In this document: piece after piece, positions 32,354 through 35,053 of the stretch
Layout: each line of letters starts with the position of its first letter
Position numbering within the stretch: position 1 is the first letter of the stretch
NCBI GenBank assembly: GCA_965202985.1
Contig: CBDBCF010000001.1
Location: 544,001-608,000, forward strand
Length of the DNA stretch: 64,000 bases
Direction of reading: 5' to 3'
Source of the DNA: Longimicrobiales bacterium
GTDB lineage: Bacteria; Gemmatimonadota; Gemmatimonadetes; Longimicrobiales; Gaopeijiaceae
Translations under genes and position numbers: made by a program
Notes under the pieces: model-generated
What the model was told of the DNA's origin: nothing
The model's input: only the letters and a program-made list of their open reading frames with translations
The model's database searches: none

Positions 32354-32575
32354 ATGGAATCCATCAAGAAGCTGGGCGTTGTGCTGGCGCTGGCCGTGCT
32401 GAGCCTCCTGGCCGCACCGACCATGCCCGCCGAGCCCCTCGGCAGCGCGGTCGAGACGGAGCTAGCGGCCGCCAACGACGTGTGGCGGGCTTACTACGTC
32501 CAGCCCGGGGTCTTTCTCTGCATCCTTGCCGTCTGCTACGACGGTTGGTGCTGCGAGATAATACCGCCTGCCTAA
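32354..32575 (+). CDS. Secreted Cys-rich peptide A1 (C-x4-C-x4-CC-EI-x-P)
   Basis: AAGGAG RBS; signal peptide; paralog at 34837. Confidence 0.85.
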   Translation: MESIKKLGVVLALAVLSLLAAPTMPAEPLGSAVETELAAANDVWRAYYVQPGVFLCILAVCYDGWCCEIIPPA

Positions 32576-32621
32576 GGTCTCAACGACCTGGGATGGCGAA
32601 GCCGTAGCGTCGCCCCGGCCG

Positions 32622-32660
32622 AGGCCGGGCTCCGGACAAGATCGAGCCGGGGCCCGGCCA
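32622..32660 (+). other. GC-rich hairpin between peptide and propeller genes
   Basis: ggccgggctccgg...ccggggcccggcc; homologous copy at 45265..45309. Confidence 0.6.
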
Positions 32661-32691
32661 AGTCGACTCACTAGACGGTGGAGCGTAAGTT

Positions 32692-33735
32692 ATGTTGACG
32701 AACCGGAGTCTCCAGGACCCGTTGCTGTCGATGTTGGTGCTCGTCGTTGCTTCATCCGCATGCGTAGACGACGCCCGCCACCCCCGGCCAGCGTCGTTTC
32801 CATTCTCGCCCGACGCCGCCGTCGCCGAATTCTCGGACATGTTCGAGGTCGTGGACTCGCTGGTCTTGGAGGAAAACGACAGCACGTTGGTGGGCCTGCC
32901 GATCGTTAGCTTCGACGGTGCCCACTTCGTGACGGCGGACATGTACTCGCATCAAGTACGTGTCTATACGAAGAGAGGGGAACTCGTCTCGTCGACAGGA
33001 AGTCGAGGAGAGGGCCCCGGGCAGTTTCGTAGTCCGGTATCGGCCCGGCGAACACGGGAAGGCGGTATTCTCGTGACCGACCCCGGGACGTGGCGATCAA
33101 CGCATTACAGATCCGATGCTTTGCGAAATCCCGAGGTCACTCCGCTTCCGGCGTCGATCGTGACGTTTGATCAGATTGATCTGGGCGACGAGCGTACCCT
33201 GTTGCTCGGGCCGAACCTCACCACATCACTTGACAGCGTCGGGCGCACTCTCCACATTTGGAATGCCAATTCCGCAGAGATTGACGTCAGCTTTTTCTCC
33301 AACCCGTTTCCACAGCACTTGGCAGAGGCCGCGGCATTTTATGCCACCGTAGAGGCAGAGGTCGCCGAGGACACGATATGGGCAGCGGCGGCACTTTCGG
33401 ACAGTGTGTATGCATTTGACCTGGACGGCGCTCAGATCAAGGCGATTCCGTTGCCGTTGAGCGAACAGGCTAGCTCGATGGAGCTTCTCTGGGTCATCAA
33501 CGCCATGTACCTCCTTCACGACGGCGACATCGCAATATGGCTAAGTTGGACAACGGCGCCCCAGACGCAGGAGGTGACGCACTACCTTGCGATCGTGGAC
33601 CGCCACGGCGAACCGACGGCCTTGCTTCGCGATACGCCCAAACTGTACGTCGTGGCAGACGACCTGTTCTACTTCCAGAATCCGAACCACCTCGAGCCCA
33701 CGCAGTGGATCGCGGCACGTCGGAGGAATTCATAA
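32692..33735 (+). CDS. 6-bladed beta-propeller lipoprotein P1
   Basis: SSAC lipobox; GSRGEGPGQF; DTIWA; paralogs at 35175 and 45370. Confidence 0.85.
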   Translation: MLTNRSLQDPLLSMLVLVVASSACVDDARHPRPASFPFSPDAAVAEFSDMFEVVDSLVLEENDSTLVGLPIVSFDGAHFVTADMYSHQVRVYTKRGELVSSTGSRGEGPGQFRSPVSARRTREGGILVTDPGTWRSTHYRSDALRNPEVTPLPASIVTFDQIDLGDERTLLLGPNLTTSLDSVGRTLHIWNANSAEIDVSFFSNPFPQHLAEAAAFYATVEAEVAEDTIWAAAALSDSVYAFDLDGAQIKAIPLPLSEQASSMELLWVINAMYLLHDGDIAIWLSWTTAPQTQEVTHYLAIVDRHGEPTALLRDTPKLYVVADDLFYFQNPNHLEPTQWIAARRRNS

Positions 33736-34272
33736 GTGACGACGGCCACTCGGCGATTTGCCAGGTTGGTCGCCCACGGGGTCGGGGCGATTTCCGTGGC
33801 GGTGGCATCCATGGCTGGGTGTAGGGCCGACTCGGAAAGAACGTTGCCGCTGACCGTCGGCGATTCTGCACCCTCTATCGGACTTTCTGATTCCATCCCG
33901 GGGCTGATCTGGGTGTTCCGCAAAGAGTCCTGCCTGGGATGCGGCTTGGGGTCTGCGGCATCGGAGATGGCGCTGGTCAGCCGCCGACTCAGTGGTCGCG
34001 TGGAAATTCTTGCGGTGGCCGTAGGCGCCGAGACGAACGCGGACCGCAGGTTGGTGGAGGCATTCCTGCAACGCCGCCGGGTCCGCACGACCGTCGTACC
34101 GATCAGCGCCCGGAGCCACGCCAGCATCTTTGGGAATGCGCCGATTCCGTCCCTGTACCTGACTCATGAGGGGCGGGTCCAGATGGTGCTGGACTTGGGC
34201 CACGAAGAGGCGCTGGATAGCCAGTTCGTCCGCTTGGACAGCGTCCTGGATATCCTGCTTCCACGGCCCTAG
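33736..34272 (+). CDS. Exported thioredoxin-fold protein (CLGC)
   Basis: VGDSAP, WVFRKESCLGC, cis-Pro-like APIPSLYL; starts immediately after P1 stop. Confidence 0.7.
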   Translation: MTTATRRFARLVAHGVGAISVAVASMAGCRADSERTLPLTVGDSAPSIGLSDSIPGLIWVFRKESCLGCGLGSAASEMALVSRRLSGRVEILAVAVGAETNADRRLVEAFLQRRRVRTTVVPISARSHASIFGNAPIPSLYLTHEGRVQMVLDLGHEEALDSQFVRLDSVLDILLPRP

Positions 34273-34509
34273 CCCGGACTAGGAACGTGTAGTCCATAGC
34301 CGATCGGTGGGGGACGCCGAGATGAACACCGGGCGATTTTGGGCGTCGGAGGGCGTACAACGGCAGTGAGAGGCTGGATCCGAGCGAAAAATAGGGCGCG
34401 TAGGCCGTGCGGATCGCCCGCTTCTCCCCAATTTGCCCACCACTACACCTTCCAGACAAAGGGCGCGGGCTTATGCCCTACGGGCTCCTAGCCCGGATCT
34501 CTCACAAGC

Positions 34510-34542
34510 GGGGGGGGGGGGGGGGGGGGGGGGGGGGGGGGG
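34510..34542. repeat. Poly-G run (33 nt)
   Basis: Direct observation. Confidence 0.95.
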
Positions 34543-34739
34543 CACTTCCGGGACGACCGGGACCCAAGCCGCGTCTAGCCGACTTGGGCGTTCTCGAGCC
34601 GGTTCAGCGTTGGCCTTGACCGCCAGGACGGCGCATCCCTTGCGCAGGGCGGGAGCGTCGTCAACACCTGCGACGCACAGCCGGGACTCGCGGGCGGCAC
34701 GGCACAGGCACGGTTGGCTCGGGCCCCGAACTGGCTCCC

Positions 34740-34798
34740 GTAAACCAAATCGACCTTCGTCCCATCTATTGGGCAACCGTGGCGGGGACGATGGCTCC
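34740..34798 (+). promoter_or_regulatory. Conserved cassette leader, copy 2: GTAAACC-N16-CATCTA
   Basis: Aligns with 32253..32313 including aaccgtggcggg.gacgatggctcc. Confidence 0.7.
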
Positions 34799-34836
34799 GG
34801 TCTCGGTTCCAACCTTCCTCAACACAAGGAGGACAC

Positions 34837-35053
34837 AAGAACACCATCAAGAAGCTAGCAGTCGGGCTGGTCCTGGCCGTAGCGTGCCTCCTGGCCGCTC
34901 CCGCCGTGCCCGTCGAGCCCATCAGCGACGCGGTGGAGACGGAGCTGGAGGCCAGCAGCCGGCGGTACCAGGCCCAACAGTTCTCGGACGTCATTAGTCT
35001 GCCACCCCAAGCCGTGCTCGGGTGGACTGTGTTGCGAGATCTCGCCCTTCTAG
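34837..35053 (+). pseudogene. Secreted Cys-rich peptide A2 (start AAG instead of ATG; frameshift at about 34990)
   Basis: AGGAGG RBS; (K)NTIKKLAVGLVLAVACLLAAPAVPVEPISDAVETELEA.. then shifted frame SLVCHPKPCSGGLCCEISPF*. Confidence 0.85.

Follow-up and report, generated by a model that had tools for sequence, protein, structure and literature searches.

Hypervariable four-cysteine peptides encoded beside propeller lipoproteins in Longimicrobiales

Introduction

Does a cysteine-rich open reading frame (ORF) encoding 73 residues specify an exported peptide, and what would its neighbors then do for it? The question arises from a 64,000-nucleotide (nt) stretch of a Longimicrobiales bacterium (assembly GCA_965202985.1, contig CBDBCF010000001.1, positions 544,001 to 608,000, forward strand), hereafter the window, whose own numbering is used below. 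Longimicrobiales are placed in the Gemmatimonadota. The genes concerned encode, in order, an extracytoplasmic function (ECF) sigma factor, peptide A1, a propeller, a CxxC protein, the A1 relative A2, and two further propellers. An earlier reading of this DNA, termed here the original prediction, held that A1 and a hidden second copy, A2, share a conserved pro-region, a variable core, and a fixed C-terminal scaffold, in the manner of disulfide-rich toxins or of precursors of ribosomally synthesized and post-translationally modified peptides (RiPPs).

The peptide family is real, and its cassette is undescribed in the papers searched: literature searches returned no description of it, with most subscription journals outside their coverage. 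The predicted function that we favor, with a probability of roughly 45%, is that of a cassette, induced by the sigma factor, for the export, folding, and handling of a two-disulfide peptide of ~33 amino acids (aa) with a target outside the cell. Throughout, G096, G124, and G101 denote other genomes, g54 a genus, L0xx loci, P00xx natural proteins, and X1, X3, X5, and X7 runs.

Results

A1 belongs to a family defined by four cysteines

A1 (32354..32575, + strand) is a genuine gene. It encodes an intact 73-aa precursor behind a good ribosome site, and the translation reproduces exactly the C-terminus quoted in the original prediction. The precursor has a Sec-type signal, an acidic linker, and a C-x4-C-x4-CC core of ~34 aa. 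In an AlphaFold2 model, residues 41-70 of the core had a predicted local distance difference test score (pLDDT) of about 80 and formed a β-hairpin (44-50 and 53-58) with a short strand at the CC pair; the pLDDT of the acidic linker was under 50. A fold search of the model against the PDB returned 0 matches, a result of little weight for a core as small as ~30 residues, and the best score in a protein-feature (Atlas) search, 0.80, was at chance level.

Used alone as a query, A1 matched 2 proteins among 5.8 billion and, in a set of 150 genomes, had true matches in two others. Iterated profiles yielded 10 representatives at 50% clustering and located the family in 11 of 401 genomes from the order (one false) and in 15 of 401 from the phylum, one of the latter belonging to another family. 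Weak matches at L004, L005, L011, and L032 were dropped as false after inspection, and a JGI metagenome scan with A1 gave 595 pattern matches with no relative among them. The family is distributed among Longimicrobiales-type Gemmatimonadota. The window's own genome holds four members: A1, A2, C1:1718599, and C2:839938. The runs containing the region were sponge or marine metagenomes wherever a habitat was recorded, with no RNA run listed among them, and intact peptide alleles were present in many samples.

The profile search, which the original prediction had named as its own check, recovered relatives in which the four cysteines were invariant (29/29 aligned sequences). None of these 29 members had a significant match in Pfam, and neither A1 nor one G096 peptide had a match in NCBIfam. 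The fixed C-x4-C-x4-CC-EI-x-P scaffold did not hold across 35 sequences: the 4/4 spacing occurred in 11, CC-EI in 5, and CC-x-I-x-P in 7. The sole invariant part is C-x3/4-C-x4-9-CC, in which only the four cysteines are constant. Core net charge ranged from -6 to +3, so the cores are not cationic, and the best 19-residue C-terminal hydropathy was under 1.0 in 28/35 sequences. Because of these spacings, charges, and hydropathies, a fixed tail, a cationic antimicrobial character, and the membrane anchor that the original prediction had listed as its possible refutation all fail. Nor was any RiPP-modifying enzyme supported, MNIO and MauE being without a match in the window's own genome.

The leader is conserved and the core is hypervariable

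The proposed layout of signal peptide, conserved acidic linker, and hypervariable cysteine core was supported, the signal peptide being assigned from hydropathy and motif. Specifically, the duplicated genes of G096 differ at 0/120 leader bases and 30/108 core bases; their leaders are identical, and their cores have a pN of 0.315 and a pS of 0.146. Among A2-type proteins, identity was 80% in residues 1-39 vs 45% in residues 40-71. Similarly, five A1 alleles were 92% identical in the leader part and 85% identical in the core part, and A1 and P0024 differ at four positions, every one of them within residues 50-63. Across these comparisons, the contrast between leader and core is strong. Separately, P0021, a protein of 119 aa, carries an A-type leader on an unrelated, longer core with five cysteines, as if the leader had been reused for another cargo.

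What was called a pro-segment probably ends at a signal-peptidase-type x-x-A site, Ala39 in both A1 and A2, and the mature peptides would be 32-34 aa long. Among 44 non-redundant members of the 59 collected, 21 had [AVSLQ]-x-A-Q at 8-26 residues before Cys1, compared with 3.2 ± 1.6 in 2000 shuffles (maximum 10). The x-x-A-Q lay 15-16 residues before Cys1 in 15 of these 21. Using a crude filter on the window's own genome, x-x-A-Q followed a signal-like stretch in 45/136 exported-type long proteins vs 14/436 others; the same genome has one signal peptidase I match and one glutaminyl cyclase match. A signature resembling the Q-rule occurs together with a glutaminyl cyclase in a non-Bacteroidetes genome. 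The Q-rule has been described for Bacteroidetes and stated not to reach related phyla, and Gemmatimonadota do not appear in the main text (PMC5837995).

A2 is a broken duplicate in the window strain

The second copy, A2 (34837..35053, + strand), is a real paralogue: as originally predicted, it is colinear with A1, at 77% DNA identity across 220 nt including about 100 nt upstream. It is not, as had been supposed, a live gene with an AAG start. An AAG does stand at 34837-39 behind AGGAGG; it is a damaged start codon. A profile search yielded seven A2-type proteins. One, P0028, is the intact A2 allele, of 71 aa, found on 6 contigs, and five others are further intact natural proteins. AAG was rejected as a working start because all six begin with Met. 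The seventh, P0030, is a second broken A2 allele with its frame shift at a different place. Position 34838 was not among the 40 substitutions listed, of 335, in a comparison of four runs with the window that left out 10 indels.

The second lesion is also other than proposed. In the window, the N-terminal part of A2 lies in one frame and the cysteine part in the +1 frame, which had been put down to a 2-nt gap near 34990. Contigs from X3 and X5 (both study P2) and from X7 (study P3) are all one base shorter than the window at 34994, so the lesion is a 1-nt insertion at that position. X1 has the window's form there; it is identical to the window over 34553-36889 and so may be the same data. An assembly error was considered and is unlikely because contigs of X1 with a depth of 47 show the window's form, subject to that same reservation about X1. 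A2 is thus an ordinary strain-specific pseudogene, a broken duplicate in the window strain.

A propeller lipoprotein is the most constant partner of the peptide

Propeller 1 (32692..33735, + strand) has a lipoprotein-type signal (Cys24) and belongs to DUF5128: its PF17170 score was 26 bits against a cut-off of 22.9, and its model (pLDDT 84) showed a six-bladed NHL-type β-propeller fold. The best Foldseek matches were Brat NHL and B. fragilis BF0058 4RAA. A predicted complex of propeller 1 (13-324) with A1 (27-73) scored 0.63, and an unrelated control scored 0.73. Propeller 2 (35175..36254, + strand) is a DUF5128-like lipoprotein 48% identical to propeller 1. Propeller 3 (36251..37380, + strand) is more distant and is frameshifted at 36772 in the window strain; contigs from X3, X5, and X7, and those of another strain within X1, have one base more there.

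The CxxC gene (33736..34272, + strand) begins directly after the propeller 1 stop codon and encodes a lipoprotein of thioredoxin fold (TlpA/AhpC-TSA-like) with the motif C-L-G-C. The protein had no Pfam match. Language-model feature (Atlas) scores of 0.93-0.95 to AhpC-TSA/Redoxin clusters provide a lead only, and C-L-x-C was kept in 11/11 homologues.

Both neighbors recur with the peptide. A propeller gene lay within 1.5 kb at 17/17 newly found peptide loci, 7/7 in a first set (L025-L031) and 10/10 in a second; an eighth locus of the first set, L032, was excluded as false, having neither peptide nor propeller. The original proposal of the CxxC protein as a partner was likewise supported, a CxxC thioredoxin-fold gene being present at 15/17 of these loci (7/7 and 8/10). 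In the reverse direction, 3/3 loci found with a CxxC profile in the window's own genus carried a C-C-CC peptide and a propeller. G096 has the order peptide-propeller-CxxC-peptide-propeller twice, each with a divergent sigma gene. In g54, arrays of 2-3 divergent peptides follow one CxxC gene and propeller; shared maturation genes fit this arrangement. Of two loci found through their propellers, L070 has two peptides and a CxxC gene, and L071, in G096, has a broken propeller and no peptide. Overall, the propeller lipoprotein, which the original prediction had overlooked, is the most constant partner of the peptide. In the window's own genome, signal-bearing small ORFs with at least four cysteines occurred within 1 kb of a propeller ORF in 13/31 cases, compared with 6.8% at random places.

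The cassette turns over fast between strains. A1 is lost in X7 through a 295-nt deletion, X3 and X5 keep A1 with the start of propeller 1 deleted, and two different broken A2 alleles exist.

Several observations at these loci stand apart. Beside the broken propeller of L071 (G096), positions 7351-7716 contain a repeated unit whose translation has varying spacers, suggestive of an array of clustered regularly interspaced short palindromic repeats. At L013:2850-3149 (G124), a deletion has apparently joined the beginning of the CxxC lipoprotein gene to the main part of the peptide gene that follows. An ABC permease and a bshB1-like gene adjoin the cassette in g54, at L070, and at the own-genome C2 site; they resemble conserved genes of the flanks and were not taken for exporters. 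On C1 and C2 of the window's own genome, many propeller-like ORFs adjoin unrelated small secreted proteins that are rich in cysteine, and in several cases an ECF sigma gene is also nearby; examples are at C1:1124685, 1216488, 1890915, 2556151, and 2570268 and at C2:895830.

An upstream motif tracks the ECF sigma gene

The ECF-type sigma-70 factor (31690..32256, + strand) matched Sigma70_r2 and r4_2 in Pfam and scored above the cut-off of TIGR02937. No anti-sigma gene was seen beside it in the ORF list. A 28-bp motif, AAACC-N12-TCGTCCCATCTA, overlaps the sigma stop codon (32255..32282, + strand) and is a candidate ECF promoter. A genome motif search located a second copy at 34742..34768 (+ strand) and a third at 43619..43646 (+ strand), in front of another cassette of small-protein and propeller genes (43827-46410). 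These 27-28-bp sequences were the only 3 matches in the 3.86-Mb own genome, and each lies in the window ahead of a cassette.

Across five other genomes, the motif had one match in G124, in front of its A peptide, and one in G101, where it is flanked by a propeller gene and by a sigma gene whose product is 51% identical to that of the window. The best sigma match in G124 lies just past its other A cassette. The motif thus tracks an adjacent ECF sigma gene, and it is likely, judging from this co-occurrence, to be the promoter that the sigma factor recognizes. The original prediction had overlooked this motif as well. A scan for sigma-70 promoters and terminators gave nothing above shuffles.

Other features of the window

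A G33 homopolymer (34510..34542, + strand) lies between the two units and was spanned by none of the compared contigs. The third motif-led cassette (43827-46410) comprises one small ORF resembling a lipoprotein, a pair of small secreted Cys/Trp proteins from a different family, and a fourth propeller (45343-46410). One Cys/Trp ORF, at about 44132-44397, is apparently frameshifted near its start, and the other, at 44394-44655, has an internal stop.

Elsewhere, two tandem paralogous genes resembling outer-membrane β-barrels (28222-29556) have a common leader, and one has a weak OMP_b-brl match. A membrane-anchored protein of ~310 aa is present in two copies, at 14997-15941 (- strand) and 37758-38690 (+ strand), with near-identical C-terminal halves. 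A low-GC island at 16361-19634 (- strand) contains DNA cytosine methyltransferase-like and GHKL ATPase-like genes and appears, by inspection, to be a restriction-modification module.

Discussion

Comparison with known systems

By analogy, the cassette would work most like the bacteroidetocin loci, and it shares the Sec-plus-ECF layout of the bufferins; it is a member of neither group. Bacteroidetocins are class IIf bacteriocins whose loci require a thiol oxidoreductase for full activity (PMC6671954). Here too, a small four-cysteine peptide is encoded beside a dedicated thiol oxidoreductase gene, the activity of the CxxC protein being presumptive. Bacteroidetocins have a 15-16-aa double-glycine leader, an ABC transporter-peptidase, and a protein with five transmembrane segments (PMC6671954). 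In contrast, the window cassette has a Sec-type leader of about 39 aa, a long linker, a propeller lipoprotein, and no conserved double glycine. No ABC transporter-peptidase ORF was seen in the cassette by inspection, no genome-wide search having been made, and the word propeller is absent from the main text of the bacteroidetocin paper (PMC6671954).

The bufferin Buf1 of Caulobacter is a four-cysteine mini-protein that is exported by Sec and predicted to form a two-stranded sheet, and an ECF sigma gene lies near its own gene (PMC11626156, PMC12452194). The A family has the Sec signal and at least four core cysteines of that group. Bufferins are, however, defined by modification through MNIO and DUF2063 (PMC11626156, PMC12452194), and MNIO (PF05114) had 0 matches in the 92%-complete own genome, with a positive Caulobacter control. 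DUF2282 had no match among the 29 family members. Neither propeller nor thioredoxin occurs in the main text of one of these papers (PMC12452194).

Another parallel lies in the Bacteroidales. The family shares with NVEALA proteins a small exported cysteine protein, an E-A-type linker motif, and a six-bladed propeller alongside; it differs in phylum and cysteine pattern. NVEALA (PF14055) small proteins in Bacteroidales adjoin DUF5128 (PF17170) propellers. PF14055 gave 0 matches against the 29 peptides at E values up to 1, and no functional paper on the NVEALA/DUF5128 neighborhood was found in the literature searched. Conotoxins of framework XVI have the same C-C-CC order, signal-pro-mature layout, conserved leader, and variable core (PMC4278219). 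This likeness is an analogy only: conotoxins are encoded by animal venom genes, and the A1 model had no fold match in the PDB. Six-cysteine defensin-like bacteriocins have a different cysteine pattern (PMC6989792).

Proposed function and alternatives

In the export-and-folding cassette that we favor, the ECF sigma factor would transcribe each unit from the 28-bp motif. The precursor would leave by Sec, and signal peptidase I would most likely cut it, in one step or two, at the x-x-A that precedes Cys1 by 15-16 residues. The CxxC protein may then form or shuffle two disulfides to give the predicted β-hairpin mini-protein, which the propeller could hold, chaperone, or display. The target of the diversified core would lie outside the cell, for example in competing microbes or in the sponge host.

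Several findings weigh against this scheme. The 17 new loci are not independent, since 16 sit in g54, largely at one orthologous site. Two of the 10 loci of the second set lack a CxxC gene, and G124 has A-type peptides and no CxxC match. Thioredoxin folds are expected to have Pro at the cis-Pro position; the window, G096, and own-C2 copies of the CxxC protein have it, and 6/7 g54 copies lack it. In G096, neither of the two cassettes flanked by sigma genes has a motif match. Most of the 93 propeller-like ORFs of the own genome are without an A-type peptide. The residue after the putative cut in A1 and A2 is Ala or Ser, not Gln. Finally, positive selection on the core is a trend only: the excess of pN over pS was not significant (Fisher p 0.07-0.20).

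The closest competitor, which we nevertheless hold doubtful, treats peptide and propeller as cognate pairs of ligand and receptor or of toxin and immunity protein: each peptide would be a signal or antagonist specific to its strain, received or countered by the propeller that comes next. Within the A subfamily, every peptide does have a propeller of its own after it. Between the G096 duplicates, the leader and the first propeller blades are unchanged, and divergence has affected the peptide core and the propeller's last two thirds. The propeller's invariant polar residues lie at structurally repeat-like positions, and inspection pointed to no obvious active site. Yet in the g54 arrays, 2-3 unlike peptides share a CxxC gene and propeller, and X3 and X5 retain A1 while losing the start of its propeller. 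With faces assigned from secondary structure rather than coordinates, the G096 propeller differences were 11/105 on the top vs 8/46 on the bottom, and five other pairs gave no enrichment in top-face loops either.

It is improbable that the peptide buffers metals or redox state under ECF control, as a bufferin would without its modifying enzyme. The hypervariable loops and frequent gene loss are ill suited to a generic chelator, and metal binding by bufferins needs the thiooxazoles that MNIO makes (PMC11626156), an enzyme family without a match in the 92%-complete own genome. What speaks for such a role is the combination of Sec signal, four cysteines, and adjacent ECF sigma gene found at buf1 (PMC11626156), together with the position of 4/9 own-genome ECF-like matches within 2.5 kb of a propeller ORF, compared with 12% for random places.

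A propeller, a small disulfide protein, and a thioredoxin-fold protein are also the three part types of methylamine dehydrogenase loci, which raises the quite improbable case that the peptide is to the propeller what MauA is to MauB, a small subunit with a structural or cofactor role. The mau cluster is marked by a MauE gene and by the conserved tryptophans of the tryptophan tryptophylquinone cofactor. The own genome has no MauE match (PF07291), the peptides have only the four invariant cysteines and no invariant Trp or other catalytic residue, and their ~33-aa core varies faster than the leader. Last, a membrane-anchor peptide or decaying, functionless DNA, as the hydrophobic A1 core (19-residue hydropathy mean 1.79) and the several broken cassette genes of the window strain might suggest, is hardly credible beside four cysteines invariant in 29/29 sequences, 28/35 cores under 1.0, and intact alleles in many samples.

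Significance

The export-and-folding cassette may have a bolder form, which we regard as unlikely: a conopeptide-like library in sponge-dwelling Gemmatimonadota. Duplicated genes would combine a long conserved leader, ending in a signal-peptidase/pyroglutamate site, with hypervariable C-C-CC hairpins that a dedicated pair of thioredoxin and NHL-propeller lipoprotein folds and presents under its own ECF sigma factor, to act on proteins of the host or of neighbors. If true, DUF5128 propellers would have a function assigned to them for the first time, and the bacterial disulfide peptides would gain a new class. The family itself supplies dozens of short, synthesizable natural peptides, a predicted cut site, and a candidate promoter. 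With these in hand, the function of the abundant DUF5128 propellers becomes directly testable.

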